Below, piece by piece: positions 25,517 through 59,205 of a stretch of DNA of 64,000 bases. The position numbers and the translations under genes were made by a program. Origin of the DNA: Cetorhinus maximus (taxonomy: Eukaryota); contig NC_135901.1 of the NCBI RefSeq assembly GCF_964194155.1, forward strand, positions 21,266,001-21,330,000, read 5' to 3'. The notes beneath the pieces are model-generated. The model was not told where the DNA came from, searched no databases, and saw nothing but the letters and a program-made list of their open reading frames with translations. The first letter of the stretch is position 1. Each line of letters starts with the position of its first letter.

Positions 25517-27743
25517 AAACAAAAACAGAAATACCTGGAAAAACTCAGCAGGTCTGGCAGCATTGGCGGAGAAGAGTACAGTTGACGTTTCGAGTCTTCA
25601 TGACCCTTCAACAGAACTGAGTAGAAATAGGAAAGGGGTGAAATATAAGCTGGTTTAAGGGGGAGGCGGGGGGGGGGGGGGGGGGGGTTGGGGGAGAAGG
25701 GGGGGGCGTTGTTGGGACAAGCAAGCAGTGATAGGAGCAGATAACCAAAAGATGTCACAGACAAAGGAACAAAGAGGTGTTGAAGGTGGTGATATTATTT
25801 AAAAGAATGTACTAATTAAGATTGGAGAGCAGGACGAGCAAGGTAGCTCTAGTGGGGGTGGGGTGAAATAAACCATGGGTGGAATACATTTTAAAATAAT
25901 GGAAATAGGTGGGAAAAGAAAAATCTATATAAATTATTGGAAAAAACAAAAGGGAGGGGGAAGAAACGGAAAGGGGGTGGGGATGGAGGAGGGAGTTCAA
26001 GATCTAAAGTTGTTGAACTCAATATTCAGTCCGGAAGGCTGTAAAGTGCCTAGTTGGTAGATGAGGTGCTGTTCCTCCAGTTTGCGTTGAGCTTCACTGG
26101 AACAATGCAGCAAGCCAAGGACAGACGTGGGCAAGAGAGCAGGGTGGAGTGTTAAAATGGCAAGCGCCGGGGAGGTCTGGATCATTCTTGCGGACAGACC
26201 GTAGGTCTTCTGCAAAGTGGTCGCCCAGTCTGCATTTGGTCTCTCCAATGTAGAGGAAACTGCATTGGGAGCAACGAATGCAGTAGACTAAGTTGGGTGA
26301 AATGCAAGTGAAATGCTGCTTCACTTGAAAGGAGTGTTTGGGCCCTTGGACGGTGAGGAGAGAGGAAGTGAAGGGGCAGGTGTTGCATATTTTGCGTTTG
26401 GATGGGGAGGTGCCGTAGGTGGTAGTTGAGGAGTAGGGGGTGATGGAGGAGTGGACCAGGGTGTCACGGAGAGAACGATCCCTACAGAATGCCACTAAGG
26501 GGGGTTAAGTGAAGATGTGTTTGGTGGTGGCATCATGCTGGAGTTGGCGGAAATGGCGGAGGATGATCCTTTGAATGCGTAGGCTGGTGGGGTGATAAGT
26601 GAGGACAAGGGGGACCCTATCATGTTTCTGGCAGGGAGGAGAAGGCGTGAGGGCGGATGCGCGGGAGATGGGCCGGACACGGTTGAGGGCCCTGTCAACT
26701 ACCGTGGGTGGAAAACCTCGGTTAAGGAAGAAGGAGGACATGTCAGAGGAACTGTTTTTGAAGGTAGCATCATCAGAACAGATGCGACGGAGGCGAAGGA
26801 ACTGAGAGAATGGGATGGAGTCCTTACAGGAAGCGGGGTGTGAGGAGCTGTAGTCGAGGTAGCTGTGGGAGTCGGTAGGCCTGTAATGGATATTGGTGGA
26901 CAGTCTATCACCAGAAATTGAGACAGAGAGGTCAAGGAAGGGAAGGGAAGTGTCAGAGATGGACCATGTAAAAATGATGGAATGATTCCCCTCTACGTTG
27001 GAGAGACCAAACGCAGACTGGGCGACCGCTTTGCCGAAGACCTTTGGTCTGTCCGCAAGAATGACCCAGACCTCGCTAGCGCTTGCCATTTTAACACTCC
27101 ACCCTGCTCTCTTGCCCACATGTCTGTCCTTGGCTTGCTGCATTGTTCCAGTGAAGTTCAACTGGAGGAACAGCACCTCATCTACCGACTAGGCACTTTA
27201 CAGCCTTCCGGACTGAATATTGAGTTCAACAACTTTAGATCTTGAACTCCCTCCTCCATCCCCACCCCCTTTCCGTTTCTTCCCCCTCCCTTTTGTTTTT
27301 TCCAATAATTTATATAGATTTTTCTTTTCCCACCTATTTCCATTATTTTAAAATGTATTCCACCCATGGTTTATTTCACCCCACCCCCACTAGAGCTACC
27401 TTGCTCGTCCTGCTCTCCAATCTTAATTAGCACATTCTTTTAGATAATATCACTACCTTCAACACCTCTTTATTCTTCTGTCTGTGACATCTTTTGGTTA
27501 TCTGCTCCTATCACTGCTTGCTTGTCCCAACAACCCCACCCACTTCTCCCCCCCCCCCCCCACCACTTTAAACCAGCTTATATTTCACCCCTGTCCTATT
27601 TCTACTTAGTTCTGTTGAAGGGCCATGAGGACTCCAAACGTCAACTGTGCTCTTCTCCACCGATGCTGCCAGACCTGCTGAGTTTTTCCAGGTATTTCTG
27701 TTTTTGTTTTGGATTTCCAGCATCCGCTGTTTTTTGTTTTTAT
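25517..27743. mobile_element. Penelope-like element, tail-out inverted repeat (left arm - 25517-26981; right arm + ~26989-27743)
   Basis: GIY-YIG 'LVYCIRCSQCSFLYIGETK' and RT thumb 'LPFLDLSV..HYRPTDSHSYLDYSSSHP'; arms are reverse complements; TSD cagaatatgc(c/a)cta at 25503-25516 and 27744-27757. Confidence 0.9.
25579..25619 (-). ncRNA. Minimal type I hammerhead ribozyme motif (core variant CUGUUGA)
   Basis: CAGTT-CTGTTGA-A-GGGTC-ATGAA-GACTC-GAAAC-GTC-AACTG: helix I 5 bp, helix II 5 bp, palindromic ACGT helix III. Confidence 0.7.
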
Positions 27744-28890
27744 CAGAATATGCACTATCCGCGCTGCAGTAAGAATTTACGCAGGCGCATTACCAGGTAT
27801 GACTCGGGCATGCGCCTTGTGGCGGTTTTGCAGAGCATGCGCACTGGCGGCTACACGAGGAATCGGTCGAAGGAGCTGAGTGCAGGCCGGTAAATTAGAA
27901 GCCGGTAGATGGGGAGGATTGGAGGCGGCGGAGTGGGCAGCGAGTCTTTATAAACATTCACCAGAGGCTTCAACGCCCGAATAAGGAGCTAGTGGTCCCG
28001 TGGTTGCAGCGAACGGACGGGGAGGCGGCTGTGGGCCGCGGTTCTCGGTCAGAAGCCGGAGCTAACGGCCCCATCGTTCCAGGGGCCAAAGTGCATCAGA
28101 GCGCATGCGCAGCCGCCATCTTTACAGGGACAGTGTGCAGCACGGCGCATGCGCGGTCGTCTCTGTCAGCAGGAGGAGAGAATGTTTTGAAATTCTATCC
28201 TGGACTGACAGGGATTGATTTTGGAAACTCCTTTTACAGGGGGATAGAAGGGGAGGATTTACACACGGCAAACGCAAACCAAGAGAAATATTTGTCTCTT
28301 CTGGTATTGGTCTTTAAAATCCTCATTAGGATGGGCATGTCGATGTGGACAGAATGTTTCCACTTGTTGGTCTGCCCGTTACTGGGGGCCGTGTATACAC
28401 AATAGTTACAAATAAATCCAACAGGAAAACTGGAGATATATCTTTCCTCAGGCAGTAATTAGAAGGTGGAACTCACGACTGCAGGAAGTGGTTGAGAGAA
28501 ATACCTGAGACTCTTTCAAAAAGAAACTAGATGAGAACATGAGAGAAAAGGAATTAGAAAGATGTGCTGAAAGACTGAGCTGAGGTCAGCAGAATAGGAG
28601 GAGACTTGTGTGGAGTAGAATCTCCAGTACAGACTAGATAGACTGAATGGCCTGTTTGTATAATGTATATTCCATGTAATTCTTTGTAAACTTATTTTAC
28701 AGGGTAATGGAAGAGGAGATTTAACGGTCAGGAAAATCAAACCAAACCTCACGCCTGATAGAGTCAGTCGGTTCATTGGGATCTGAAGATTTGTACATCT
28801 GAAGGGATTTAATTGACCGTCTCAGCTGGAAACTAGTGACAGGCTGTTCACCTGCTCCTCCTGTTGGAAGGAATTAAAAAGCTGGTCAAC

Positions 28891-30402
28891 ATGCTGACAC
28901 GACAGCGCGCTCGCAATAGTGAGAGTCCGTTCACCTGCTCCGTTTGTGGGAAGAAATTCATGTGTTCATCCAACCTGCTGGCACACCAGCTAGATCACTT
29001 TGATGAGAAACCTCTTCAGTGCCCTAACACTGGGGAAAGCTTTGAAACCCCTGAGGAACTGGTCCAACACCAGCGAGTTCACACTGATGAGAGACCGTTC
29101 AGTTGCTCCCACTGTGGGAAGAGGTTCAGGCTGTCCTCCCGCCTCGCGGAGCACCAGCTCCTTCACACACACGAGAGGCCGTTCAGCTGCTCTCACTGTG
29201 GGGAGTCATTCAGCGAGTCAGTACATCTCACTGAGCACCAGCGAGTTCACACCAAAGACAGGCCATTCAGCTGCCCCCAGTGTGGGAAGAGATTCGCTCA
29301 GTCTTCCCATTACACTGAGCACCAATTGGTTCACTCCGATAAGAGACCTTTTAAATGCTCAGAATGTGAAAAGACCTTTAAAAGATGCAGGGAACTGCTG
29401 AGACACCAGTGCACTCACACCAGCGAGAGGCCATTCACTTGCTCCGTGTGTGGGAAGAGCTTCACCCGTGCAGTTCAACTTCTGAAGCACGAGGGTGTTC
29501 ACACTGGGGAGAGGCCATTCACCTATTCCATGTGTGACAAGAGAGTTTCTGAATCCTCCCAATACACTGAACACAAACACGTTCACTCTGGTAAGAGAAC
29601 TTTTAAATGTTCTGAATGTGAGAAGACCTTTAAAAGAAGCAATGACCTGCTGATACACCAGCGCATTCACACTGGGGAGAGGCCGTTCTTCTGCACTGAG
29701 TGTGGGAAGAGATTCACTTGGTCATCTAATCTGGTGGAGCACCAGCGCACTCACACTGGGGAGAGGCCGTTCCTCTGCTCTGACTGTGGGAAGAGATTTG
29801 CTCATTCATCTGATCTGGTGAAACACCAGCGAATTCACACCGGGGAGAGACCGTTCACCTGCTCTGAGTGTGGGAAGACATTTACTCGCTCATCCCACCT
29901 GCTGACACACCAGCGGGTTCACACAGGGGAGAGGCCGTTCACCTGCTCTGAGTGTGGGAAAGGATTCACTCAGTCATCCAACCTGTGGATACACCAACAA
30001 GTTCACACTGGGGAGAGACCGTTTCTCTGCTCTGAGTGTGGGAAGGTATTCAGCCGGTTAGCCAACCTGTTGAGACACCAGCGAGTTCACACTGAAGAGA
30101 GACCTTTTAAATGCTCTGACTGCGGGAAGTGCTATAAAACTTCTGGAGAACTGATGCACCATCAACGTGTTCACACTGAGAAGAGACCGTTCAGATGCTC
30201 TCACTGCAAGACTGGGTTCAGGAAATCATCTCAACTCACTTTACACCAGCGAATTCACACTGGGGAGAGGCCGTACACCTGCTCCGAGTGTGGGAAGGGA
30301 TTTACTTGTTCACACCACCTGCTGAGACACCAGCGAGTTCACAGGTCACCGGCAACGTTGGATTTTCTCGTTTTTGCTGCTGAGAATAACGTCCAGGACT
30401 GA
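28891..30402 (+). CDS. C2H2 zinc-finger protein (unit F), 17 finger repeats (15 intact)
   Basis: First ATG at 28891 within ORF 28864..30402; acceptor AG at 28701-28702; C-terminus extends into the family 3' UTR motif. Confidence 0.9.
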   Translation: MLTRQRARNSESPFTCSVCGKKFMCSSNLLAHQLDHFDEKPLQCPNTGESFETPEELVQHQRVHTDERPFSCSHCGKRFRLSSRLAEHQLLHTHERPFSCSHCGESFSESVHLTEHQRVHTKDRPFSCPQCGKRFAQSSHYTEHQLVHSDKRPFKCSECEKTFKRCRELLRHQCTHTSERPFTCSVCGKSFTRAVQLLKHEGVHTGERPFTYSMCDKRVSESSQYTEHKHVHSGKRTFKCSECEKTFKRSNDLLIHQRIHTGERPFFCTECGKRFTWSSNLVEHQRTHTGERPFLCSDCGKRFAHSSDLVKHQRIHTGERPFTCSECGKTFTRSSHLLTHQRVHTGERPFTCSECGKGFTQSSNLWIHQQVHTGERPFLCSECGKVFSRLANLLRHQRVHTEERPFKCSDCGKCYKTSGELMHHQRVHTEKRPFRCSHCKTGFRKSSQLTLHQRIHTGERPYTCSECGKGFTCSHHLLRHQRVHRSPATLDFLVFAAENNVQD

Positions 30403-30524
30403 ACCTTTTCTCCTTTCTAACTCTAGATTATTTCAGTTCTCATACCCTCGGTTACTCTCATGGACAAGTCCCAGCTCCTCATACCTTCCAGAGTGCCTCT
30501 CCTAGCCTTGGGATCCAGGAAAGT

Positions 30525-31275
30525 GTAAGATTTTTGATTTGGGAGCCACAGATACCTTAGAAAGGCAGTCAACTATTTGTAAGTAATTTTAAGATAGTTT
30601 ATTAATAAAAAGACAGTTTAGACACGATGCACGAGCTAATTAGACAGAAAAAGTATATGATCTGTGATAGTTGAGAGCAGTTTACTGATCCCAGAGGACA
30701 AACGGACGGTTGGCACAGAGAGCATTGATCTCAGTAGTTTGTGATAACAGCATTCTGCTCTCTAACCGAAGTGTTAGGGAACTCTTCCTTTGGTCTTCCT
30801 CCTCCTTTTCCATCTGGAGAAGGCGGCTGCCTGATGAGCACTGCCACCTCACCAGCCCTGCCCCCTGTCCCTGAGCACTTGTTGATATAACCTTTTCCTG
30901 GTGGCTTACCCAGTGTCAATCATCTATTCAGACCCGTCTATCCAATGGAAACAGGACAGGTACCCAAAATGTCAGGGTGGTTACCTCCTCCCCTGTTCGT
31001 CGCCGTGCTCCAGGTCAGTTTTTTAGTTTCCGACATGCTGAGCGTCATTTCCTGGCCTATTCTAAACACTTGCATGGATAAGGGGGTACACAAGACACCA
31101 TCCTACCAACTTAGGAATGTTAACATGTCAGCCTGAACCAAGTGACCTTGCCGTTTCCAGGGAATGTTTCGTGTTGTTGCCTGTTTAGAAATTGCCTTTC
31201 CAGAAGTTGCCTTTATGGAGGGAGAAAATCAATGCTGTTGAGCTAATTTCATAGAGCTCTATCCTGTGCAGAAAT
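30525..31275 (-). mobile_element. Probable solo LTR
   Basis: Starts TGTAAGA; minus-strand AATAAA (~30600) and TATA-like (~30887) in LTR order; related fragment at 20315-20480; right boundary uncertain. Confidence 0.4.
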
Positions 31276-31294
31276 ACCAATTTATTAAAGTTTG

Positions 31295-32530
31295 TTTTGG
31301 GAAGGTCACGTTTGACAAATTTGATTGAATTTTTTGAGGAGATAACCAGGAATGTTGATGAGGGTAATGCCTTTGATGTGGTCTACATGGACTTTAGCAA
31401 GGCTTTTGATAAGGTCCCTCATGGCAGACTGGTCAAGAAAGTAAGAGCCCAAAGGCAAAGTGGCATGTTGGATCCAAAACTGGCTGAGAGGCAGGAAGCA
31501 GAGGGTGATGGCACAGGGATGTTTCTATGACTGGAAGTCTATTTACAGTGGGCTCTGCAGAGCTCAGTGCTGGGGCCCTTGCTGTTTGTGCTATATATCA
31601 ATGATTTGGACTTAAATGTAGGGAGCATGATCAAGAATTTCACGGATGACACGAAAAGTGGCAGGGTGGTAAATAGTGAGGAGGATTGCCGTAACTGCAG
31701 GAGGGTATCAATGGACTGGTCTGGTGGGCAGAGCAGTGGCAAATGGAATTCAACCTAGAAAAGTGTGAGTTAATGCACTTGGGGAGAGCTAACAAGGCAA
31801 GGGATTACACTGTGAACGGCAGGACCCTGGGAAGTACTGAAGATCAGAGGGAACTTGGTGTACATATCCACAGATCCCTGAAGGTAGCAGGGCAGGTAGA
31901 CAAGGTGGTTAAGAAGGCATACGGGATACTTGCCTTTATTAGCCAAGGCATAGAATACAAGATCAGGGAGGTTATGCTGGTACTGTATAAAACGCTGGTT
32001 AGGCCACAGCTGGAGTGCTGTGTGCAGTTCTGGTCACTACATTACAGGAAGGATGTGATTGCACTGGAGAGGGTGCAGCCTGAGCTGGAGAGTCTGAGCT
32101 ATGAGGAAAGATTGGATAGGCTGGGGTTGTTTTCCTTGGAGCAGTGAACGTTGAGAGGGGACCTGATAGAGGTGTATAAGATTATGAGGGGCAGAGATAG
32201 GGTGGATAGGAAGGCACTTTTTTCCATTAGTAGAGGGGTCAATAATCAGGGGGCAGAGATTTAAGGTAAGAGATAGAAGGCTACGAGGGGAGTTGAGGTG
32301 AAATTTCTTCACCCAGAGTGGTGGGAGTCTGGAACTCATTGCCTGAAAATGTGGTTGAGTCAGAAACTCTTGTAACATTAAAGAAGTATTTAGATATTCA
32401 CTTCTGTTGCCATAGCCTCCAGGGATATGGGCCAAGTGTTGGAAAATGGGATTAGTGTAGTCAGATCTTTGTTGATTTGTGCAGGCATGATGGGCCGAAT
32501 GGCCTCCTCCTGTGCTGTAAACGTCTGTGA
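31295..32530 (+). mobile_element. CR1 LINE, 5'-truncated, RT to 3' UTR
   Basis: 'LTNLIEFFEE..VYMDFSKAFDKVPH', 'LGPLLFVLYINDL', 'LYKTLVRPQLECCVQFW'. Confidence 0.9.
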
Positions 32531-32549
32531 GTCTGAGAGTCTAAATCCC

Positions 32550-32760
32550 ACCATCGGAGACACCAGCGAGTTTACAGATGGCTGCAGGAGTTGGATTTTG
32601 CTATTCATCACGTCCAGGACGGAGCCATGTTCATTGGGGTCTTTTTCTGTTGATGTTATTAAGTTCCAGCCGAGTTATAGATGTCAATATCTGGATAAAA
32701 GTCAAATAAATCAGCTTTATAAACACATCGGGTGATGAGTCATTTTAATATTTCTAACAC
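32550..32760 (+). pseudogene. Orphan ZNF 3' end (last finger residues plus 3' UTR and polyA signal)
   Basis: 'gagacaccagcgagtttac..ggttggattttgctattcatcacgtccaggac..aaataaatcagcttt' matches the 3' ends of D, G and J. Confidence 0.7.
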
Positions 32761-32764
32761 AGGT

Positions 32765-33190
32765 TACTTCCTTGATTGGCACCCAATCCACCACTGTAAA
32801 CATTCACTCCTTCCATCACCGACACACAGTGGCAGCAATGTGTACCATCTACAAGATGCACTGCAACAACTCACCAAGGCTTCTTCAACAGCTCCTTCCA
32901 GCAACCCCTACCGAAGGACAAGGGAGCAGATAGATGGGAGCACCACCACCTGGAGGTTCCCCTCCAATCCAGTCACCAACCTGACTTGGAAATATATCCC
33001 GTTCCTTCACTGTCACTGAGTCAAAATCCTGGAACTCCTTCCCTAACAGCACTGTGGGTGTACCTACACTACATGGACTGCAGTGGTTCAAGAGGATGGC
33101 TCACACCACCTTCTCAAGGGCAGTTAGGGATGGGCAATAGATGCTGGCCTAGCCAGTGACGCCCACTTCCTGTGAACGAATAAAAAAAGT
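32765..33190 (+). mobile_element. HER1-type LINE 3' end
   Basis: Colinear with 22350-22775. Confidence 0.8.
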
Positions 33191-33194
33191 GCTG

Positions 33195-35940
33195 TCCATC
33201 TCCCCTGTCTCCATCCTCATCTCCAACAACAAGTGCGAAGACCTCATGGAGCTTCTTTGTCACAAAGATTGAGACAATTTGATCAGCTGCTTCCCTCCCT
33301 TCCACTAGCCCACAAGGCCAAACTCTCTCTAAAGTTCCCCCTTGTCTGAGCCCTGAACTCACATCTTTCTCCAGTTTCTCTCCTATCTCCCATCATGTCC
33401 TGTCAGAGCTCATCTTATTCACCTCCTAGTCCCTCGACCCTATTCCCACTAAGCTGCTGACCATCCACCTTGCCCAAAGTACTGGGGAAATCGCCTGGAC
33501 AGTATCAGCTGCCACTGTGGATTCACGGTTGAGGAGTTGTTGAAAATGTTCTTTCCTGTGTTGATGGATGATATTGTCATCCCCAAGGAGAGAAACACCA
33601 TCCTGTGAGTGAAGGGGATTTTGTCCATTATCTTGGTCTATTCATGGCCCTGGTGGCTTCAAAAAGCTTTGCTTGTCGTGATGGTCAGCGTATTGTTGGG
33701 TATCTCGGGCTTGCTCCTCCCACCACTTGTACTTTATTGTCTTTGGCCGTCAGCTTTGAGCTGTTGGAACTCTGCCTTCTTGCCACCTCGGGTTGTTCTG
33801 CAGGGCAATGAAGGTTCATTTTTGTTACAGGAGGTCACATTTTGAACATCATTTTCATTGAACCAGTCCTGGTGACGACGATGCTCGAACCCAATGGTCT
33901 GGGAACAGGAGTCTTGTACAGCTGACTTCATCCGATCCCAACGTTCTGAGAAGAAACGACACAGACCAAATGGTACAATTTTGAAGAGGATGCAGAAAAG
34001 GACAGACTTGGGTTTGTTTGTGCACAAATCTCTGAAGGTGTGAGGACAGGTTAACAAACAGTCAATGAAGCAGACGGGATGCTGGGCTTTATAAGCAGAG
34101 ACAGAGAGTACAAAGGTCAGGAAGTCTCACTATAAAAAACATTATTTCTGCCCCGTCTGGAGTATTGTGTCCAATTCTGAGCATCACATTGTAGGGAGGA
34201 CATGAAAGCTTTGGAGAGGGCACAGAGGAGATGGATCACAGGACCACGGATCAATAAGAGAACCTGGGGCTGTTCTCCTTGGAACAGAGAAAGTGAAGAG
34301 GAGATTTGATAGACCTGCTTAAAATCATGAAGGGTTTAGATAGAGTGAATAAGGAGAAAATATTTCCAATGGCCAATGGGTTTGATAACCAGAGGACATT
34401 GATTTAAAGTGATTGGCAAGAGAACCAGAGGCATCAGGAGGAAATCTTTTCAGTAACAAGTGGTTAGGATTTGGAATGCACTGTCTGATGGGGCGATGGA
34501 TACCGGTTCAAGAGTGATCTTCAAAAGGGAATTGGATAAATATTTTAAGGAGAAATGATGCAGGGATGGGATAAAGAATGGGGGAGTGGGACTAACTGGA
34601 TTGCTCATCGAAAGTTACCAGCACAGATTCAATAGGCCAAATGGCCTCTTTCTCTGGTGTACTATTAAGAGATTCCATGATTTATAATACAATGATTCAT
34701 AATAAACATGATATGATAGAATCATAGAGCATGGACGGTGGCCATTCAGCCCGTTGTCCCTGTACTGTGCCTGAAAATGTTACCAATCTGTCCCACTCCC
34801 CTGCTCTTTTCCGATCGCCCTCCAAATCTTTCCTTATGAGATAAAAGTCCAAATCACTTTTGAAAGTTACTATTGAATCTGCTTCTACCAATCATTCCGA
34901 CAATGAAAACAATGACTTCGGTCTTCCCGATATTTAATTGGAGGAAATTTCTGGACACCCACCACTGGATGTCAGACAAACAGTCTGATCCTTTACCAAG
35001 AGTGGAGAAGTTGAGAGAGGTGGTGGTGAGGCAGAACTGGGAGCTGTCAGTGTAAATGTGATAACTGACAAGAGTTTTCAGATTATGTCATTGTTTGGAG
35101 CAGATTAATGAGAAATAAGAGGAGACCAAGGTGTATCCTTTGGGGATACCAGCGGTAACTGTGGGAGTGGGAAGGGAAGACATTACGAGTGATTCTCTGA
35201 CTATGATTCGATAGAGAAGAATGGAACCAGGAGACAGCAGCCCCACCCAGCTGGACGACAGGGGAGAGGTGAAGGTGCAGAATGATGTGGTCAACATTGT
35301 CAAAGGCTGCAGACAGGTCGAGGACGAGAAGGGAGAGTTTATCTTTGTCACAGTCACATAGGGTGTCATTTGTGACTTTGATAAGAGTTGTTTCAGTACT
35401 GTGGCAGGGGCAGAAACATGATTGGGAGGATTCAAAGATGGAGTTCTGGGAAAGATGGGCAGGGATTTGGGAGGTGACAGCATGTTCAAGGACTTTGGAG
35501 AAGAAAGAGAGGCTGGAGATGGGACAGTAGTTTAGGAGGATGGTGGGGTCAAGGATTTATTTTTTGAGAAGGGTATAATGATGGTAGATTTGAAGGTGAG
35601 AGGGACAGTACCTGAGAGAGAAAATTGTTAGCATAGTCAGTGAACATGGAGAAGTTGAGTGATCAGTAGTTTAGTGGGAATAGGGTTGATGAAGGAGGTG
35701 GGACAAGATGAGCTCTGAGAGGGCCTGAGGTGAGATGGGAGGGAAACTACAGAAAGATGTGAGTTCAGGGGTCAGGCAACAGGGAAATTTAGAGAAAGTT
35801 CAGCCCCGTGGGCTAGTGGAAGGGAGGGAAGCAGCAGAGGCAGCTGATCAGATTGTCTCAATCTTAGTGACAAAGAAGCTCCATGAGCTCCTCACACTTG
35901 TTGAAGGTGCGGATGGAGGAGACGGGGAGAGGGAGAGCAC
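33195..35940. mobile_element. Nest of L2 (33195-33470 +; 34900-35940 -), RTE-like (33480-33950) and CR1 (33960-34890) fragments
   Basis: L2 segments are reverse complements of each other; 'RRHQDWFNEND' is RTE-like; CR1 3' ends are recognisable. Confidence 0.7.
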
Positions 35941-36152
35941 TTCAAAAAGAACTAACCTGAGTTAGAGATATTCAAAAAACCTCAATGGATTTGCGTTTAA
36001 CACAAAGCTGCTTATTTGATTTTTATCAAAAATATTAGCCCCTGTAAGTGGTCTGGAGGTTAGTAAAATCAGCAGAAATAGACTCCATTGAACATGGTTC
36101 AGTCCTGGATATGATTAACAGCAAAATCAAATCACTGTAGTTACTTATGAAT

Positions 36153-36758
36153 TCACTGGTGTCTCAGCCAGTGGGATGAGGTAGTGAATCCCTTCCCACA
36201 CGTGGAGCAGGTGAATGGCCTCTCCCCAGTGTGAATTTGCTGATGCTTCAGCAGGTCGGATGACTGAGTGAATCCCTTCCCGCACTCGGAGCAGGTAAAT
36301 GGTCTCTCCCCAGTGTGAATTCGCTGGTGTACAGTGAGTTGGGATGATCGCCTGAACCCAGCCCCGCATTGAGAACACCTGAATGGTCTCTTGTCAGTGT
36401 GAACGTGTTGATGGTACATCAGTTCCCAGGATCTTTTATAGCACTTCCCGCAGTCCAAGCATTTAAAAGGTCTCTCTTCACTGTGAACTCGCTGGTGGCT
36501 CAGCAGGTTGGATGAAAGAGTAAATCCCTTCCCACACATGGAGCAGGTGAACGCCCTCTCCCCAGTGTGACTGCGCTGATGCTTTTCCAGCTCAGCTGGG
36601 GGTTTGAATCCCATCCCACAGTCCCCACATTTCCACGGTTTCTCCCCAGTGTTACTGCACTTGTGTTTCCACAGGCCAGACGATTGCCTGAAGCCTCGTC
36701 CACACACAGAACACGTGTACGGTTTCTCTCCACTGTGAACGGTGCTTTTTTCTTCCAT
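36153..36758 (-). CDS. C2H2 zinc-finger protein (unit G), 7 finger repeats, last one clipped by a CGA>TGA stop
   Basis: ATG at 36758 (MEEKSTVH...); acceptor at ~36869; ancestral 'CAT AAG TAA' end lies just past the premature TGA. Confidence 0.85.
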
Positions 36759-40545: not shown

Positions 40546-40549
40546 AGGG

Positions 40550-44350: not shown

Positions 44351-44354
44351 TGGG

Positions 44355-45080: not shown

Positions 45081-45082
45081 TG

Positions 45083-48334: not shown

Positions 48335-51300
48335 GAAGTTGGAGGAAGAAGGAAGGAAGAGCATAGTGACAGGGGATTCATTAGTTAAGGGAACAGAGCG
48401 GTGTTCCTGCGGCCATAAACATGACTCCAGGATGGTATGTTACCTTCTTGGTGCCAGGGCCAAGGATGTCACCGAGTGGGTGAGGGACATTCTTTTGGGG
48501 GAGGGTGAACAACCAGAGGTCGTGGTCCACGTTGGTACCAATGACTTAAGTAGGAAGAGGGATGTGGCCCTGCAGACGGAATTTAGGGAGCTAGGTAGAA
48601 AATTAGCAAGCAGGACCTCAAATGTAATATTCTCCATATTATTTCCAGTGCTATGTGCAAGTGAGCATAAAAATAGGATAAGGCAGATGAATGCGTGGCT
48701 GGAAAGATGTTGCAGGAGGGAGGGCTTTAGATTCCTGGGACACTGGGAGTGGCTCTGAGGGAAAATGGCACCTGCACAAGCCGGAAGGGTTGCACCTGAA
48801 CAGAGCCAGGACTGAGCTCCTTGATGTGTGTTTGCTAGTCTTGTTGTGGGGGTTGGGGGAGGCTTCAAACTAATTCAGCAGGGGTGTGGGAACCAGGAGA
48901 GAATATTAGAGAGTAATAATAAGCTGCAAAAAATACTGGGAGAGACAGATAACATGAGAATAGCAAATAGTAAGGAAATAGGCACAATCGGAGTGAGGGT
49001 GAAAGTAATGCACTCAAAATCAGGGTTATACTATATGTATGTGAATGCACGGAGTATAGTAGATAAGATTGCTGAGTTACAGGTGCAGATTGCCATGTGG
49101 AAATATTACGCTGTGGCGATGACAGAGATCTGGCTCAGGGAAGGGGAGGACTGGGTGTTAACTATCCCTGGGTACAACATGTTCAGGAAAGGTAGGGCAG
49201 GAAGAAAAGGAGGGATGGGTGGCTGTATTGATTAAGGAAAGCTTTGCAGTGCTGGAGAATGAGGATGTCCAGAGAGTTCAAGGACAGAATCAATTTGACT
49301 AATGCCAAGGAACAAAAAGGGTGCAATTACATTGCTCAGTGTAATCTATAAACCGCCAACTAGTAGGAAGGATGTAGAGGAACAAATCTGAAGGAAAATA
49401 GCAGAGAGTTGCAAACATTATAGAGTAGCTATAATGGCGAACTTTAATTTCCTGAATATAGACTGGGATAGTGGCAGTGTAAAGGGTAGAGAGGGGCATG
49501 AGTTCCTAGGGTGTGTTCAGGCAAATTTTCTACAGCAGCATGTGTCCAGTCCAACAAGAAAGGAGGCACTGCCAGACCTGGTTTTTGGAAACGATGTGAG
49601 CCAAGTAGATCAGGTGTCAGTGGGGGAACATTTAGGAGACAGTGATTATTGTATCATAAGGTTTAGGATGATGCTAGAAAAGGACAATGTGCAATCCAGA
49701 GTAAGAATAATTAACTGGGGGAGCGCTGACTTCAATGGAGCAAGAACAGAACTGGGCCGGATAGACTGGAACCAAAGGTTGGTGGGAAGACGTAGCTGAA
49801 CAATGGGCTACCTTGAAAGAAGAAATGATTCTGGCAGAGTCAAGGTATATTCCCTCAAAAGGGAAAGGTAGGGCAATTCAGAGCTCCCTGAATGAAAAAT
49901 GAGATAGAAATTAAGATAAAGAAGAAAAAATGTGCTGATGACAGGTGTCAGGTAGAAAATACAATTGGGAACTAGTCGGACTACAGAAGAAGGTTCAGAG
50001 GGGAGATGAAAATGCAAATAAGAGAAGCAAAGAGGGATCATGAGAAAAAAAACTGGCAGCCAACATAGAGAGGAATGCCAAAGTCTTCTATAGGCACATA
50101 AAACGATGGTAAAAGGAGGAGTAATGTCAATTAGGGACCAAAAGAAAGGATTACACATGGAGGCGGGGGCATAGCTGAGGTGTTAAATGAATACTTTGCA
50201 TCTGTCTTTACCAAGGAAGCAGATGCTACCCAGGCCACGGTGACAGAGGAGGAACCTCTGTCGCTGGAAGGGTAAAAAATTGATAAGGGGGAAGTGTTGG
50301 TTGAACTGTTGGTACTTAAAGTTGACAAGGCACCGGGACTGGATGAGATGCATCCAAGGATATTGAAGGAAGTTATAGTAGAAATTGCAGGGGCACTGGC
50401 CATAATCGTTCATTCTTCCCTTGACTCAGGGGAGGTGCCAGAGGACTGTAGAATTACAAACATTACGCCCTTGTTCAAAAAAGGTTGTAAGGATAAGCCC
50501 AACATTTACAGACCAGTCAGTTTAACTTCTTTGGTGGGGAAGCTTCTAGGGAAAATTATTTGGGATAGAATTAATCATCACATAGAAGAATGTGAGTTGA
50601 TTAGGAAGAGCCAGCAACGTTTTCTAATGGGGAACAAAACCAAGAATTGCTGGAAAAACTCAGCAGGTCTGACAGCATCTGTGGAGAGGAAAACAGAGTT
50701 AACGTTTCGAGTCCATATGACTCTTCATCAAAGAGAAATAGAAATATGGTGAAATATAAGCTGTTTAATGGGGGGTTGGACAGGTGGTGGTGGATAGAGG
50801 GCCAGTGATAGGTGGGGGCAAAGGAGAGATTACCAAAGATGTCATAAACAAAAGGTCAAAGGGGTGTTGACGGTGGTGATATTAGCTAAGGAATGTGCTA
50901 ATGGTGACATTAAGGATAAAAAGCAGGATGAGCAAGTGACAGATGGCCCTAGTGGGGGTGGGGTGGGGGTAGGGGATCGAAATAGGCTAAAAGGTGGGGA
51001 TAAAGCAATGAATGGAAATAAATTTTTAAAATAATAGTAGAAATAGGTGGGAAAAGAAAAAATGTATATATAAAAAATGTATAATAATTATTAGAAAAAA
51101 GGGGATCAAAAAGGGTGAGGATGGAGGAGGGAGTTCATGATCTGAAGTTGTTGAACTCAATGTTAAGTCTGGGAGGCTGTAACGGACTCGAAACATTAAC
51201 TCTGTCTTCCTCTCCACAGATGCTGTCAGACCTGCTGAGTTTTTCCAGCAATTTTTGGGTTTTTGTTTCAGATTTCCAGCATCTGTAGTATTTTGCTTTT

Positions 51301-52555
51301 TTCTAAAGGGGAAATCGTGTTTAACTAACTTGCTAAAGTTCTTTGAAGAGGTAACAGAGAGGGTTAATGAGAGTAATCCTTTTGAACTGTTTATGGACTT
51401 TCAAAAGGCATTCAATACAGTGCTGCACAACAGACGTGAAAAATGTTATAGCTGATAGAATAAAAGGGACAATAGCAACGTGAATACAGAATTGGCTGAG
51501 TAATAGGAAACAGAGAGTAATGGTCAATGGATATTTTTCTGACTGGAGGAAGGTTTCTAGTGGAGTTCCCCAGAGGTCGGTATTGAGATCCTTGCTTTCT
51601 GTGACCAATATTAACGACCTAGATCTTAGTGTGCAGGGGAAAATTTCAAAATTTGCGGATGATACTAAACTTGGAAGCATTGTAAACTGTGAGTATAGAA
51701 CTTCAAAAGGACATGGACAAGGTGGTGGAGTGGGCAGACAGATGGCAGATGAAGTTCAATGTGGAGAAGTGTGAGATGATGCATTTTGATAGGAAGAACA
51801 TGGAGAGACAATGTAAAATAAGGGGTACAATTCTTAAGGGGGTGCAGGACCAGAGGGGCCTGGGTGTATATATGCATAGATCATTAAAGGTGGCAGGACA
51901 GGTGAAGAGAGCTGTTATTAAAGCATACAGTATTCTAGGTTTTTTAAACAGGGGCATAGAGTACAAGAACAAGGAGGTTATGCTGAACTAATATAAGACA
52001 CTAGTTAGACCTCATCTGGAGTATTGTGTACAGTTCTGGGTGTCACAGTATAGGAAGGATGTGAATGCATTTGAGAGAGAGTGAAGAAGAGGTTTACAAG
52101 AATGGTTCCAGGGATGAGAAACCTCAGTTATGAATATAGATTGGAGAGGTTGGGACTGTTCTCCTTGGAGAGGAGAAGGCTAAAAGGAGATTTAATAGAG
52201 ATGTTCAAAATCATGAGGGGCTGGATAGACTAGATAGGGATAAACTGTTCCTGCTCATAAAAGGATAGAGAACAAGAAGGCACTGATTTAAGGTGGTTTA
52301 CAAAAGAAGCAAATGTGATGTGAGAAAAAAACTTATTCACTCAGCGAGTGGTTGGAGTCTGGAATGTACTGCCTGGAAGTGTGTTGGAGGCAGGCTCAAT
52401 TGAGGCATTCAATAGGGCATTGGGTGATTATCTGAATAGAAACAATGTGCAAGGCGACAGGGAAAAGGCAGAGAGCGGCACTAAGTCATAATGCTCATTT
52501 GGAGAGCCAGTACAGGCAGGTTGGGCATCCCTCTGTGCCATAACAATTCTGTGTT
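48335..52555 (+). mobile_element. Near full-length CR1 LINE: ORF1 SGNH-esterase, APE endonuclease, RT, 3' UTR; decayed and interrupted by a PLE
   Basis: 'IVTGDSLV..VVVHVGTND..EGLHLN' (esterase); 'YVNARSI..AMTEIWL', 'HLGDSD' (APE); 'GVPQRSVL..KFADDTKL' (RT). Confidence 0.9.
50635..51298. mobile_element. PLE tail-out inverted repeat (left arm ~545 bp, right arm ~115 bp) inside the CR1 RT
   Basis: TSD ttttctaa(t/a)ggggaa at 50620-50634 and 51299-51313 duplicates the CR1 F-L-K-G codons. Confidence 0.85.
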
Positions 52556-52559
52556 TCTG

Positions 52560-53140
52560 TGATTATCAGAAGGGATTTGAGATCCCAGTTTGAGCTGGAA
52601 ACTCATGGGTAAAATCATGAAAAGGTCATTCACCAGCTCAATGTGGAAAAGACTCATAAAAAAGCCACATACTGCGGATGCTGGAAATCTGAAATAAAAA
52701 ATGCTAGAAAAACTCAGCAGGTTTGGCAGCATCTGTGGAGAGAGAAACAGAGTTAATGTTTCGAGTCCGTATGACTCTTCTTTAGAAGAAGTGATTCACT
52801 CGGTCACCCCATTCGCTGACACAGCAACACAGTTACACCTGAGAGAGGCCATTCAGATACTACATTTGTGCAAAGGGATTTACTCACTTTGCCCACCTGT
52901 TAACACTCCAGTTTTAAACGTTCAGAGGCTTTGATCCAAAATTGCTACATTCCTATTGACAACACAGAGTTTGAATGTTCTGTGTATGGGAAGAAAAGTC
53001 ACTTGTTCAAACTGCCGACTGAGAGTCCAGTGAGTTCACAACTAACCATAGGTGTATGTTCTGTTGTTAATTATACCGGGACAGAACTATGGTGGAGGGC
53101 GAGTACACTTTGGTTGCCGTTTCAATTGACTTAATAATTT
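52560..53140 (+). pseudogene. Highly decayed ZNF 3' end upstream of a promoter, with a PLE fragment at ~52656-52785
   Basis: Finger-like remnants 'gattcactcggtcaccccattcgctgacacagcaacacagttacacctgagagaggccattc'; homologous to 41000-41360 (-) and 25250-25450. Confidence 0.6.
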
Positions 53141-53145
53141 TACAT

Positions 53146-53400
53146 AACACAAACTCAGAAAGTGCTGGAAAAACTCAGCAGGTCTGACAGCATCTGTGGA
53201 GAGAGAAACAGACTTGACGCTTCAAGTCTGGATGATTCTTCTTCAGAGCTGAAGAAGAGTCAGCTCTGAAGAAGAGTCATACGGACTCGAAACATCAAGT
53301 CTGTTTCTCTATCCACAGTTGCTGTCAGAACTGCTGAGTTTTTCCAGCATTTTCTGTTTTTGTTTCAGATTTTCGGCATCCGCAGAATTTTGCTTTTATG
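53146..53400. mobile_element. Miniature PLE tail-out inverted repeat with canonical HHR core CTGAAGA at 53266
   Basis: TSD ataatttta(c/t)at at 53134-53145 and 53401-53412; empty site at ~25401. Confidence 0.8.
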
Positions 53401-54000
53401 ATAATTTTATATCTTGGCCCTGTGGCTCCAATCAGCATCGGATCACAAAACATAATTTTCTGCTGAACAAAATCACATTTCAATGGCAGCCTGTTTACCC
53501 AGCATTCGCCGCGGGGCGGAATGGACCCTATTCTTTTTACAAAACAAAAACAGAATTACCTGGAAAAACTCAGCAAGTCTGGCAGCATCGGCGGAGAAGA
53601 AATCAGTCAACGTTTCGAGCCTCCATGGCCCTTCGGCAGAACTGCAGCATAGTTTCAACAAGGGAGAAATATAAATTGGTTTAAGGTGGGTGGGGGGCGG
53701 GGGGGAAGAGACACATTGAGGGTGTGGTGTGAGCAGATAATAATCAAAAGATGTCAGAGACAAAAGGGTCAAAGAGGTGTTGAAGGTGGTGGTCTTTGTC
53801 TGAGAAAAGTGCTAATTAAGAATGGAAGACAGGATATTCAAAGTACAGCTCTAGTGGGGGTGGGGTGGAAAGACTAAAGGTTTTAGTTTTAGATTTAAAA
53901 ATAATGGAAATAGGTGGGGAAAGAAGAATCTATATAAATTATTGAAAAAAAGCGGGTGGAGGGGGAAAAGAAACGGGGTGGGGATGGGGGGAGGGGGAGT

Positions 54001-55281
54001 TTAAGATCTAAAGTTGTTGAATTCAATATTCAGCCCAGAGGGCTGTAAAGTGCCTAGTCGGAAGATGAGGTGCTGTTCCTCCAGTTTGCGTTGGGCTTCA
54101 CTGGAACAATGCAGCAAGCCAAGGACAGACATGTTGGCAAGAGAACAGGGTGGAGTGTTAAAATGGCAAGCGACAGGGAGGTTTGGGTCTTTCTTGCGGA
54201 CAGACCGCAGGTGTTCCGCAAAACGGTGGCCCAGTTTGCGTTTGGTTTCTCCAGTGTAGAGGAGACCGCATTGGGAGCAACGAATGCAGTAGACTAAGTT
54301 AGGGGAAATGCAAGTGAAATGCTGCTTCACTTGAAAGGAGTGTTTGGGCCCTTGGACGGTGAGGAGAGAGGAAGTGAAGGGGCAGGTGTTGCATCTTCTG
54401 CGTGGGCATGGGGAGATGCCATAAGTGGGGGTTGAGGAGTAGGGGGTGATGGAGGAGTGGACCAGGGTGTCCCGGAGGGAACGATCCCTACGGAATGCCG
54501 TCAAGGGGGGTGAAGGGAAGATGTGTTTGGTGGTGGCATCATGCTGGAGTTGGCGGAAATGGCGGAGGATGATCCTTTGAATGCAGAGGCTGGTGGGGTG
54601 ATAAGTGAGGACAAGGGGGACCCTATCATGTTTCTGGGAAGGAGGAGAAGGCGTGAGGGAGGATGCGCGGGATATGGGCCGGACACGGTTGAGGGCCCTG
54701 TCAACGACCGTGGATGGAAAACCTCGGTTAAGGAAGAAGGAGGACATGTCAGAGGAGCTGTTTTTGAAGGTAGTGTCATCAGAACAGATGCGACGGAGGC
54801 GAAGGAACTGAGAGAATGGGATGGAGTCTTTACAGGAAGCGGGGTGTGAGGAGCTGTAGTCGAGGTAGCTGTGGGAGTCGGTAGGCTTGTAATGGATATT
54901 GGTGGACAGTCTATCATCAGAAATTGAGACAGAGAGGTCAAGGAAGGGAAGAGAAGTGTCAGAGATGGACCATGTGAAGATGATGGAGGGGTGGAGATTG
55001 GAAGCAAAATTAATAAATTTTTCCAGGTCCCGACGAGAGCATGAAGCAGCACCGAAGTAATCATCGATGTACCGGAGAAAGAGTTGTGGGAGGGGGCCGG
55101 AGTAGGACTGGAACAAGGAATGTTCCACATACCCCATAAAGAGACAGGCATAGCTGGGGCCCATGCGGGTACCCATAGCCACACCTTTTATTTGGAGGAA
55201 GTGAGAGGAGTTAAAGGAGAAATTGTTCAGTGTGAGAACAAGTTCAGCCAGACGGAGGAGAGTAGTGGTGGATGGGGATTG
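54001..55281 (-). CDS. 5'-truncated PLE polyprotein (RT C-terminal half + GIY-YIG endonuclease), frame still open
   Basis: Part of ORF 54001..55398; no native start because the N-terminal ~39 aa come from the inverted arm. Confidence 0.8.
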   Translation of the reverse strand, partial: QSPSTTTLLRLAELVLTLNNFSFNSSHFLQIKGVAMGTRMGPSYACLFMGYVEHSLFQSYSGPLPQLFLRYIDDYFGAASCSRRDLEKFINFASNLHPSIIFTWSISDTSLPFLDLSVSISDDRLSTNIHYKPTDSHSYLDYSSSHPASCKDSIPFSQFLRLRRICSDDTTFKNSSSDMSSFFLNRGFPSTVVDRALNRVRPISRASSLTPSPPSQKHDRVPLVLTYHPTSLCIQRIILRHFRQLQHDATTKHIFPSPPLTAFRRDRSLRDTLVHSSITPYSSTPTYGISPCPRRRCNTCPFTSSLLTVQGPKHSFQVKQHFTCISPNLVYCIRCSQCGLLYTGETKRKLGHRFAEHLRSVRKKDPNLPVACHFNTPPCSLANMSVLGLLHCSSEAQRKLEEQHLIFRLGTLQPSGLNIEFNNFRS

Positions 55282-56354
55282 TTTTCCATCCACGGTCGTT
55301 GACAGGGCCCTCAACCGTGTCCGGCCCATATCCCGCGCATCCTCCCTCACGCCTTCTCCTCCTTCCCAGAAACATGATAGGGTCCCCCTTGTCCTCACTT
55401 ATCACCCCACCAGCCTCCGCATTCAAAGGATCATCCTCCGCCATTTCCGCCAACTCTAGCATGATGCCACCACCAAACACATCTTCCCTTCACCCCCCTT
55501 GACGGCATTCCGTAGGGATCGTTCCCTCCGGGACACCCTGGTCCACTCCTCCATCACCCCCTACTCCTCAACCCCCACTTATGGCATCTCCCCATGCCCA
55601 CGCAGAAGATGCAACACCTGCCCCTTCACTTCCTCTCTCCTCACCGTCCAAGGGCCCAAACACTCCTTTCAAGTGAAGCAGCATTTCACTTGCATTTCCC
55701 CTAACTTAGTCTACTGCATTCGTTGCTCCCAATGCGGTCTCCTCTACATTGGAGAAACCAAACGCAAACTGGGCCACCGTTTTGCGGAACACCTGCGGTC
55801 TGTCCGCAAGAAAGACCCAAACCTCCCTGTCGCTTGCCATTTTAACACTCCACCCTGTTCTCTTGCCCACATGTCTGTCCTTGGCTTGCTGCATTGTTCC
55901 AGTGAAGCCCAACGCAAACTGGAGGAACAGCACCTCATCTTCCGACTAGGCACTTTACAGCCCTCTGGGCTGAATATTGAATTCAACAACTTTAGATCTT
56001 AAACTCCCCCTCCCCCCATCCCCACCCCGTTTCTTTACCCCCCCCCACCCGCTTTTTTTTCAATAATTTATATAGATTCTTCTTTCCCCACCTATTTCCA
56101 TTATTTTTAAATCTAAAACTAAAACCTTTAGTCTTTCCACCCCACGCCCACTAGAGCTGTACTTTGAATATCCTGTTTTCCATTCTTAATTAGCACTTTT
56201 CTCAGACCACCACCTTCAACACCTCTTTGACCCTTTTGTCTCTGACATCTTTTGATTATTATCTGCTCACACCACACCCTCAATGTGTCTCTTCCCCCCC
56301 GCCCCCCACCCACCTTAAACCAATTTATATTTCTCCCTTGTTGAAACTATGCTG

Positions 56355-56395
56355 CAGTTCTGCCGAAGGGCCATGGAGGCTCGAAACGTTGACTG
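56355..56395 (+). ncRNA. Minimal type I hammerhead ribozyme motif (core variant CUGCCGA); mirror copy at 53604-53644 (-)
   Basis: CAGTT-CTGCCGA-A-GGGCC-ATGGA-GGCTC-GAAAC-GTT-GACTG; helix II covaries relative to the 25579 copy. Confidence 0.7.
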
Positions 56396-56669
56396 ATTTC
56401 TTCTCCGCCGATGCTGCCAGACTTGCTGAGTTTTTCCAGGTAATTCTGTTTTTGTTTTGTTTTGGATTTCCAGCATCCGCAGTAGCTTTTAGCTTTTTGT
56501 TTTTATCCCTATTCTTTTTATTCATTCACGGGATGTGGGCGGCTGGTTGAGAGGAGATCCTTGCGCAGGCGCAGTACCGGGCAGCGACAGGCACATGCGC
56601 AGTGTGAGCTCAAAGCGGAGCATGCGCAGTCCATAGAGTCCGGAGCTGACCGAAGGACTGAGAAATATC

Positions 56670-57068
56670 GAGAACAAAAACAAAAAGCTAAAAGCTACTG
56701 CGGATGCTGGAAATCCAAAACAAAAACAGAATTACCTGGAAAAACTCAGCAGGTCTGGCAGCATCGGTGGAGAAGAAATCAAATAACGTTTCGAGCCTTC
56801 ACGGCCCTTCGGCAGAACTGAAGCATAATTAGGAGAGGGGTGAAATATAAGCTGGGTTAAGGTGGGGGGGGAGAGAGAAGTTGAGGGTGGGGTGATTGTG
56901 GAGATAAGCAAGCAGTGATAGGAGCAGATAATCAAAAGATGTCACAGACAAAAGGATCAAAGAGGTGTTGAAGGTGGTGATATTTGTCTGAGAAAAGTGC
57001 TAATTAAGAATGGAAGACAGGACACTCAAAGTACAGCTCTAGTGGGGGTGGGGTGGAAAGACTAACAA
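56670..57068 (-). mobile_element. PLE 3' fragment with tail and HHR, inserted in the unit J first exon region
   Basis: Highly similar to the reverse complement of 56130-56506; promoter homology resumes on both sides. Confidence 0.85.
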
Positions 57069-57330
57069 GGTGAGTGAAGGGAGCCAGTGAGTGGGGAGGA
57101 ATGGAAGCGGCGGAGATGGCGGGGATCTTCATAAACACCCAGTAGAGTTATGAAACCGTGAATAAGAAGCTACCGGTCCTGCGGTTGCATCAAACGAGGC
57201 GGCGGCAGGTGGGGCCCGCTTTGCCTTCGTCGAGAGGCCCAAGTAAACGGCCGCCATTTGTATAGGGGACAATGTGCAGCAGGGCGCATGCGCCGCCGCC
57301 ATCTTTCTAGTGGGAAACGTGCAGCTGGAC

Positions 57331-59205
57331 TCAATCACACAGAGCAGAAGGGGCTCTTCGGCCCATCGGGTCTGCACATGAGAAACACCTGACCTACCTA
57401 CCTAATCCCATTTACCAGCACTTGGCCCATAGTTTTGAATGTTATGACGTGCCAAGTGCTCACCCAGGTACTTTTTAAAGGATAAAAGCAAAATACTGCG
57501 GATGCTGAAAATCTAGAACAAAAACAAAAATACCTGGAAAAACTCAGCATGTCTGACAGCATCTGCGGAAGAGGATACAGTTGACGTTTTCAGTCCGTAT
57601 AACCCTTCATCAAAACTAAAACATATAGAAATGAGATGAAATATAAGTTGGTAGAAGGGGGTGGGACAGGAGAGCTCGATAGGGGCCCAGTGATAGGTGG
57701 AGGCCAAGAAAAGATTTCCAGCTTTTAAAGGATGTGAGGCAACCCGCCTTCATCACCCTCCCAGGCAGTGCATTCCAGAACATCACCACCCTTTGGGTAA
57801 AAAAGTTTTTCCTCACATCCCCCCTAAACCTCCTGCCCCTCACCTTGAACGTATGTCCCCTCATGACTGACTCTTCAATTAAGGGGAACAGCTGCTCCCT
57901 ATCCACCCTGTCCATGCCCCTCATAATCTTCTACACCTCGATCAGGTCGCCCCTCAGTCTTCTCTGCTCCAACGAAAACAACCCAAGTCTATCCAACCTC
58001 TCATCATAACTTAAATGTTTCATCCCAGGCAACATCCTGGTGAATCTCCTCTGCACCCCATCCAGTGCAATCACATCCTTCCTATAATGTGGCGACCAGA
58101 ACTGCACACACTACTCAAGCTGTGGCTTCACCAAGGTTCTATACAACTCCAACATGACCTCCCTACTTTTGTAATCTATGTCTCGACTGATAAAGGCAAA
58201 TTCCCCATCTGCCTTTTTTACCACCCCACTGACATGCCCCTCCACCTTCAGAGATCTATGGACACACATGCCAAGGTCCCTTTGTTCCTCAGAACTTCCT
58301 AGTGTCATGCCATTCATTGAATACTTCCTTGTCAAATTACTCCTTCCAAAGTGTATCAACTCACATTTTTCAGAGTTAAATTACATCTGCCACTTATCTG
58401 CCCATTTAATCATCCCGTCTATATCTTCCTGTAGCCCAAGACACTCCCAAAGCAATTAGGAGAGCAAACAGGGGGTATGAGAAAGCTCTGGCTGGAAAAG
58501 CAGGGAAAATCCCAAGATATCCCAGAAGTAAATCAATAGGAAGAGGATAACCAGGAAAAGAGTAGGACCCATTAGGGACCAAGGGGGAAATCTATGGGTA
58601 GAGCCAGAGTGATGGTCTGGAATGTGCTGCCTGGGAGGGTGGTGGAGGCGGGTTGACTCACATCCTTTAAAAAGTACCAGGATGAGCACTTGGCACATCA
58701 TAACATTCAAGGCTATGGGCCAAGTGCTGGTAAATGGGATTAGGTAGGTAGGTCAGGTGTTTCTCACGTGTCGGTGCAGACTCGATGGGCTAAAGGGCCT
58801 CTTCTGTACTCTGTGATTAAGCTCCACCCTGCACTTTTTGTATTCCACTAATGCCTCCACTGATTTGCTCCCCTTGTACCTGCTAAAAGCCTCTCTTTTC
58901 CCTCTCATTGTATCCTGAATATCTCTGGTCATCCATGGTTCTCTCAGCTTGTTACTCCTTCCTATCATCCTAGAGGGAACATGTTGAGCCTGTACCCTTC
59001 CCATTTCCTTTTTGAACGCCCCCTACTGCTCTTCTGTAGATTTCCCCACAAGTAGCTGTTCCTCGTCTACCTTGGCCAGATCCTGCCTTATTTTACGAAC
59101 ATCTGCTCTCCTCCAATCCAAAACATTTTTTTTGCAACTTGTCTATTTCTTTGTCCAAAACAAGCTTAAATTGTACCATGTTGTGGTCACTATCACTAAA
59201 GTGCC
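57331..59205. mobile_element. Rearranged CR1 complex with two 3' tails, containing a PLE 3' fragment (57482-57720, -)
   Basis: The same CR1 tail occurs at 57335-57480 (-) and 58608-58817 (+); the PLE is flanked by a 'ttttaaaggat' duplication. Confidence 0.8.

Follow-up and report, generated by a model that had tools for sequence, protein, structure and literature searches.

Minimal type I hammerhead ribozymes reside in the pseudo-long terminal repeats (pLTRs) of metazoan Penelope-like elements (PLEs). They have been reported in fish Neptune, Poseidon and Xena elements, do not cleave as monomers, and cleave at low level as dimers (PMC4209133). The adenine at position 6 of the CUGANGA core (A6) is found in all 56 PLE representatives of Fig. 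S3 of the same paper, whose descriptor demands it. In the reconstituted Anolis element PAc (PMC11167929), two sites at the borders of the tail serve to start reverse transcription in vitro; cleavage by the hammerhead requires protein, and catalytic mutations leave insertion normal. The reason for which PLEs retain a hammerhead is unsettled: cleavage in vitro is weak, insertion does without cleavage in the one reconstituted system, and the motif is absent from some clades. The DNA analysed here (the window, 64,000 nucleotides of Cetorhinus maximus, NC_135901.1, positions 21,266,001 to 21,330,000) is a C2H2 zinc-finger gene cluster interspersed with retroelement remnants; its repeats probably resemble cartilaginous-fish ones. 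PLE ends found in it carry hammerheads of this class, and those with an intact scaffold all have U or C at position 6. Coordinates are those of the window.

A recognisable hammerhead core is kept in ten copies (Table 1), eight of which had been listed in an earlier reading of the sequence (the original prediction) at positions that all hold within ~5 nt. A strict hammerhead pattern gave 4 matches in the window, and 0 in each of 100 shuffled sequences. Layout and 3'-end location agree with the PLE minimal type I hammerheads with ACGU palindromic helix III (PMC4209133), as had been proposed. All ten copies feature an extra unpaired A (A9a) and U16.1-H17, eight the ACGU palindrome, and 7 of 9 distinct rows the G10.1-C11.1 closing pair. 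Helices I and II have 5/5 pairs each in 3 copies, and are 81% paired overall, against 18–41% in slid controls. The scaffold is intact only in the copies starting at 25579, 53604 and 56355, all of which lack A6, have U or C instead, and satisfy every other invariant core position. A6 and an intact scaffold occur together in no copy of the window, the A6 copies being decayed elsewhere. The full motif CAGTT-CTGNNGA-A-[helix II]-GAAAC-GTH-RACTG, attributed earlier to eight sites, holds at the same three, and the other five depart from it. None of the 12 matches (E up to 10) obtained in an Rfam scan of the window is a hammerhead family, though the minimal PLE forms may not be modelled there.

The youngest copies feature CUGCCGA or CUGUUGA instead of CUGANGA, and the two arms of an inverted insertion always share one core, as the original prediction had it. 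Identity of the arms excludes decay after insertion; it does not establish a subfamily by itself, since the two arms share one source. The step from arm identity to subfamily states was in this respect insufficient, and the conclusion is borne out by other data. CUGCCGA marks two independent insertions, the element at 56676–57065 and the 56.36k arm, which differ by 31 substitutions in 357 aligned columns. In a tree built without positions 3–7 (94 columns, midpoint root) the five U/C6 rows form one group (86/92), which includes the three C6C7 rows as a subgroup (95/96), and the A6 rows fall outside. By the divergence of its arms (8 substitutions in 1,178 aligned columns) the C6C7 insert ranks as the youngest, while the arms of the older U6U7 insert differ by 33 in 719. 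Judged from these sequences, U6 and C6 are inherited subfamily states, not decay.

Raw DNA reads of a capture library (run X19) were placed on 56230–56530 at 80% likeness (50,568 reads). U is found at position 6 in 2,383 of 8,437 reads (~220 start places), and at position 7 in 4,321 of 8,537; the remaining reads probably have mostly C at position 6. A6 appears in none of the 40 rows listed (36 further rows include four C>A), and its share, as inferred from the ranking of the rows, is probably below 19%, the lowest share listed. CUGUUGA is also read in the mixed consensus (agreement 0.74) of the 5,148 reads broken off at 56380. From a depth of ~8,400 for 1,733 million letters, copies would number in the thousands, a rough figure into which the off-target share of the capture library and genome size enter. 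Runs X17 and X18, with 2 and 0 reads placed, are too few to bear on the core; runs of organism labels B to E share 24–50% of the words of the end of the young element, and are silent on the core. A6 is present in 20/20 matches in metagenome contigs found with positions 6–7 left free (8 distinct motifs, unrelated to the window family); blastn of these contigs against the window gave no match, and they serve as A6 control only. One contig (L007:301-386) holds a head-to-head palindrome of two A6 minimal hammerheads, the same arrangement as seen in the window.

Other origins of the position 6 change were considered and rejected. Coding constraint is not supported, as the frame is open through the 27.6k motif, is interrupted in both further copies translated, and is unlike the N-termini of 7 relatives. 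Loss of the AUG in CUGAUGA would be obtained free of cost by altering position 7, and an AUG is present in the young loops anyway. Pairing of positions 6–7 with a new partner strand does not hold for both subfamilies: U6U7 can pair with A14-A15.1, C6C7 cannot. In viral contigs, at least 120 loci matched a loose pattern with a pyrimidine at position 6; 9 of them have a helix II of at least 3 bp and none also a helix I, and they are treated as chance matches.

Helix II is paired in 93% of the cells of a 10-copy alignment, in which a single pair, 10.4-11.4, changes on both sides. The variants GGGTC/GACTC, GAGTC/GACTC and GGGCC/GGCTC all pair, as had been noted, except for a C-A mismatch in the copy at 27607. 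Between the intact U6U7 and C6C7 copies lie 7 differences, none breaking a pair: positions 6 and 7, the compensatory change at 10.4/11.4, a loop base, a C to U change at H17, and a U-A to U-G change at 1.1. The 12 other core and palindrome positions are spared by the 7 changes (P = 0.07 under random placement), and the palindrome is kept by all five U/C6 copies. The compensatory pair, the wobble and the allowed H17 change suggest that selection on the fold went on. In the X19 reads, C>U at 10.4 and G>A at 11.4 have matching shares (63.5% and 60.2%), which are marginal, not linked.

That A6 variants would be attenuated, one of the two options of the original prediction, is what the literature leads to expect. 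A natural phage A6C hammerhead and one engineered A6C form lose most activity in Mg2+, and keep 0.18–0.31 per min in Mn2+ (PMC7151607, text available in part). The kobs of A6C is below 0.1 per min in PMC3088659, which terms core variants rare, and CUGA mutants are low in a pairwise mutational scan (PMC9901934), both sources available in part. The available portions of PMC11014351 and PMC6155905 hold nothing further on position 6. By analogy, a strong drop in self-cleavage is the probable effect of the U6/C6 change. Sequence on either side of the predicted cut is retained in 15/15 PLE ends (three rows judged by eye), which implies that the templates were uncut, or religated, at that site. Such templates agree, by analogy, with the normal insertion of the PAc catalytic mutants. 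Short copies at ~12335, 41528, 45193, 45210 and 51182 start at helix II or a little within it, on the upstream side of the predicted cut, as if reverse transcription had often halted at the helix II hairpin.

The explanation favoured here is that the U6/C6 PLE subfamilies carry an attenuated ribozyme with some residual role, a reading for which belief and doubt are evenly balanced. In the source elements of one lineage, we infer, A6 was replaced by U (CUGUUGA), later by C6C7 (CUGCCGA), and the subfamilies kept amplifying. Self-cleavage would have been strongly lowered by the replacement. Reverse transcription would begin in the tail, downstream of the motif, and would have to copy through the cleavage site. 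Loss of A6 would cost the element little, because insertion would need an RNA uncut (or religated) at that site. The fold may be kept under some selection, most likely for slow cleavage with the help of protein, at a later step or a separate one. A wider proposal, less likely than not, is put forward tentatively: A6>U and then C6C7 would have been fixed in the source elements of one vertebrate PLE lineage, giving thousands of copies with the fold kept, and the hammerhead would act as a switch gated by protein or metal, or as an RNA element without catalysis, leaving the template intact until reverse transcription has passed.

Several results weigh against these readings. The helix II covariation claimed earlier reduces to one compensatory pair (10.4-11.4), and is not significant in the window: in the 10-copy alignment it is not above shuffles, 142/500 and 126/500 of which reach it. 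A P value of 0.07 for the spared positions leaves room for neutral drift of a dead motif. The read shares at 10.4 and 11.4 are not linked per read. Selection of the X19 reads for likeness to the C6C7 copy under-samples A6 families. The order U6 before C6 is not firm, coming from a 94-column tree with a midpoint root. No assay of A6U was found in the literature on position 6.

The alternative which survives best, though doubtful, is that cleavage was lost outright with A6, and that the motif persists since the subfamilies descend recently from an active one. The U6U7 core is predicted to pair with A14-G16.2, leaving the open hammerhead fold a probability of 0.01, the conservation test stops at the P value given above, and Naiads without hammerhead proliferate well (PMC8557442, available in part). 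The folding argument is weak, however, as some natural A6 motifs are also low (0.04–0.07). Fixation of a compensatory double change, and of a wobble, followed the loss of A6, and A6C, in the assays of PMC7151607 and PMC3088659, is slow but not dead.

That the reverse transcriptase-endonuclease (RT-EN) protein, or Mn2+, restores normal activity, U6/C6 being a switch which delays cleavage until protein binds, is unlikely. Such gating would match the protein dependence of the Anolis PLE hammerhead (PMC11167929) and the good activity of A6C in Mn2+ (PMC7151607). Predictions for C6C7 do not oppose it, since both its open-fold probability (0.22) and its dimer cost (+3.8 kcal/mol) lie within natural A6 ranges (0.04–0.55 and +2.0 to +5.6). 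The available text of PMC11167929, however, does not report the tested Anolis motif as a position-6 variant, and according to it no RNA-seq reads have an end or a beginning at the Anolis cut site; in PMC7151607 the authors themselves doubt the biological relevance of Mn2+.

Inverted pairs of PLE ends with 12–15-nt target-site duplications (TSDs) are five in the window (25.5/27.7k, 45.1/45.3k, 50.6/51.3k, 53.15/53.4k, 53.5/56.5k). A further pair may reside at 41.4/41.6k. In all five (four scored by script, the fifth read separately) one arm has a short tail and the other a long one (P = 0.03 for an independent choice of start sites by two RNAs), which fits an ordered use of two start sites of reverse transcription, perhaps on one RNA. 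Of the single ends, four were scored (12.4k, 52.7k, 56.7k, 57.5k), and each has a long tail. Inverted pairs are found with A6 cores (50.6/51.3, 53.15/53.4), U6 and C6 cores alike. That one of two inverted pLTRs bears a tail is already known from PLEs (PMC3846280), and Naiad and Chlamys PLEs form tandem or inverted inserts without canonical hammerheads, as described in the portion of PMC8557442 available. For PAc a protein dimer is predicted; both strands of the DNA are cut as well as extended by it, and insertion is normal even when the hammerhead is catalytically dead (PMC11167929). By analogy, cutting and extension of both strands by such a dimer would account for inverted inserts without an RNA dimer.

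The original prediction had offered, as an alternative to attenuation, that the A6 variants may mainly serve RNA dimerisation or protein binding. In favour of dimers, every one of the five U/C6 copies retains ACGU, the arms of an inverted insert both begin at the 3' end with overlapping sequence, and minimal PLE hammerheads are thought to act as dimers (PMC4209133; review PMC6765202). Compared to two monomer ensembles, though, the modelled double hammerhead lies at +3.8 (C6C7), +7.1 (U6U7) and +2.0 to +5.6 kcal/mol (natural A6); the ACGU duplex alone yields -1.7 to -3.5 kcal/mol, and the U6U7 core is predicted to hide the palindrome. Dimer cleavage within a tandem transcript is possible. That the motif now mainly dimerises two RNAs via ACGU, to supply the two templates of inverted double insertions, is very improbable given these energies, the finding of inverted pairs whatever the base at position 6 (A, U or C) and also in PLEs lacking canonical hammerheads, the short-plus-long tails, and the sufficiency of the predicted protein dimer.

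The U6U7 and C6C7 inverted elements occupy, to within ~10 nt, the same place in a pair of GC-rich regions which are paralogous parts of the zinc-finger cluster (flanks 25399–25516 and 27744–27900 compared to 53399–53539 and 56507–56675). The TSDs differ, and two independent insertions at one site hint at a local target preference. In older families (50660–50710(-), 53290–53325(+), and like copies) the sequence after the cut resembles a branch point, a pyrimidine tract and a CAG acceptor, followed by ATG; in the young families that AG is lost, and a donor-like CAG-GT is found further on. The resemblance was judged against the general splice consensus only. The segment 53149–53363 is a 215-nt near-perfect palindromic insert made by two hammerhead-led stubs, and the Rfam match to mir-3747 at 53225 (38 bits, below the gathering score) corresponds to this PLE insert and is spurious.

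The open reading frame (ORF) remnant in the left arm of the youngest insertion has its CX4CxxC linker at residue 292, and matches the GIY-YIG domain. An RT followed by a C-terminal GIY-YIG, the arrangement which defines EN+ PLEs, is thus found. Full-length relatives (at least 747 residues, RT and EN) number 146, with identity up to 54%; they carry PF00078, many also PF01541, and a CX2-5CxxC linker is present in 113 of the 120 listed. This linker between RT and EN marks the Neptune/Nematis clades as opposed to Penelope/Poseidon (PMC8557442, available in part). By that definition the element is of Neptune/Nematis type, not Penelope/Poseidon, a call made from the linker motif, which does not separate Neptune from Nematis. 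The hammerhead lies ~360 nt downstream of the stop of the GIY-YIG ORF in both arms of the youngest insert. On sequence grounds the motifs are minimal type I hammerheads at the 3' ends (pLTR) of a Neptune-type PLE, an already known class. A non-LTR retrozyme would be built of non-coding units in head-to-tail tandem, every unit bearing a type I hammerhead (bioRxiv 10.64898/2026.07.22.740005, available in part), and was rejected, as inverted or single ends of ORF-bearing elements are found here.

Table 1. Hammerhead copies and PLE features of the window
Feature	Position	Strand	Remarks
Minimal type I hammerhead, CUGUUGA (U6U7)	25579..25619	-	stems I and II 5/5 pairs each, ACGU palindrome, C17
Partner arm, CUGUUGA, decayed	27607..27647	+	TAGTT, G12>C, C-A mismatch at 10.4-11.4 (GGGCC/GACTC)
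Older-family copy, UUGAUGA (A6, U3)	50696..50736	-	helix II intact; stem I 5' strand gone
Older-family copy, CUAAAGA (A6, G5>A), decayed	52750..52790	-	absent from original prediction
Older-family copy, CUGAAGA, decayed	53211..53251	-	left arm of short palindromic insert; absent from original prediction
Older-family copy, canonical CUGAAGA	53261..53301	+	helix II intact; stem I 2/5 pairs, palindrome broken (ACAT)
Minimal type I hammerhead, CUGCCGA (C6C7)	53604..53644	-	intact scaffold, U17
Minimal type I hammerhead, CUGCCGA	56355..56395	+	identical to 53604-53644
Copy of independent insertion, CUGCCGA	56780..56820	-	stem I 3' strand damaged, one of five pairs broken
Copy basal to U/C6 clade, UUGAUGA (A6, U3)	57578..57618	-	helix II closing pair lost
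ORF remnant, RT-linker-GIY-YIG	54001-55281	-	YIDD, CX4CxxC linker and GIY-YIG in one frame
Left arm, youngest inverted PLE insertion, short tail	53539..55280	-	holds ORF remnant from 54001
Right arm, youngest insertion, long tail	55281..56506	+	GIY-YIG frame 55460-56002
14-nt TSD, youngest insertion	53526..53539	+	exact repeat at 56507-56520
Left arm, older inverted PLE insertion, short tail	25516..26981	-	flanked by the 14-nt TSD of the older insertion
Right arm, older insertion, long tail	26987..27744	+	33 substitutions in 719 aligned columns vs left arm
14-nt TSD, older insertion	25503-25516 and 27744-27757		1 mismatch
Single 5'-truncated PLE end, C6C7 subfamily, long tail	56676..57065	-	

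Earlier work has already described this hammerhead class, its dimer model and inverted PLE insertions. Short-stem-III hammerheads which cleave as dimers are reportedly treated by Lunse, Weinberg and Breaker (RNA Biol). Neither position-6 hammerheads in young multi-copy PLE subfamilies, nor a natural A6U core, nor a multi-copy eukaryotic position-6 family were found in the published literature, the Lunse et al. survey of these motifs not being covered. The available text of bioRxiv 10.64898/2026.07.22.740005, which includes one chondrichthyan, has no passage on 'catalytic core'. If true, the gated or non-catalytic reading would add to the known hammerheads a multi-copy eukaryotic position-6 family and a natural A6U core. 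A natural A6/U6/C6 series in one scaffold, with the variants on recently successful branches, offers a direct comparison on whether cleavage matters. Searches with descriptors demanding CUGANGA overlook whole young families.

The window hammerheads share with the minimal hammerheads of metazoan pLTRs (PMC4209133) the type I layout, the 5-bp helices I and II, the unpaired nucleotide between 9 and 10.1, the G10.1-C11.1 pair, the palindromic 15.1-16.1 without helix III loop, the location at the PLE 3' end, and the presence of many families per genome. The helix II of the Acropora Neptune motif is very similar. In contrast, the only core variant in the text of that paper is U3-A8, whereas the youngest subfamilies of the window have U6 or C6; cartilaginous fishes are absent from its table. 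PLE association and a very short palindromic stem III are shared with the hammerheads cleaving as dimers (review PMC6765202, available in part). The natural A6C hammerhead of phage Bcep176 (PMC3088659, PMC7151607) also has C at position 6. It is, however, a single rare intergenic phage case, not from a retroelement, not of the minimal dimer type and not multi-copy, and no U6 form is reported in the portions of these papers available. Anolis Poseidon PAc, as far as the text of PMC11167929 available goes, features two start sites of reverse transcription which define the tail, AT-rich targets, cutting and extension of both strands, and a hammerhead at the pLTR/ORF junction, like the window element; it differs in belonging to the Penelope/Poseidon clade without CX2-5CxxC linker, and perhaps in having an ORF which starts within the hammerhead. 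The PLE inserts of Arkhipova et al. 2013 (PMC3846280, available in part) similarly have inverted pLTRs and a ~31 bp tail on one arm, but their TSDs measure 8–10 bp, compared to 12–15 nt here, and host and clade differ.

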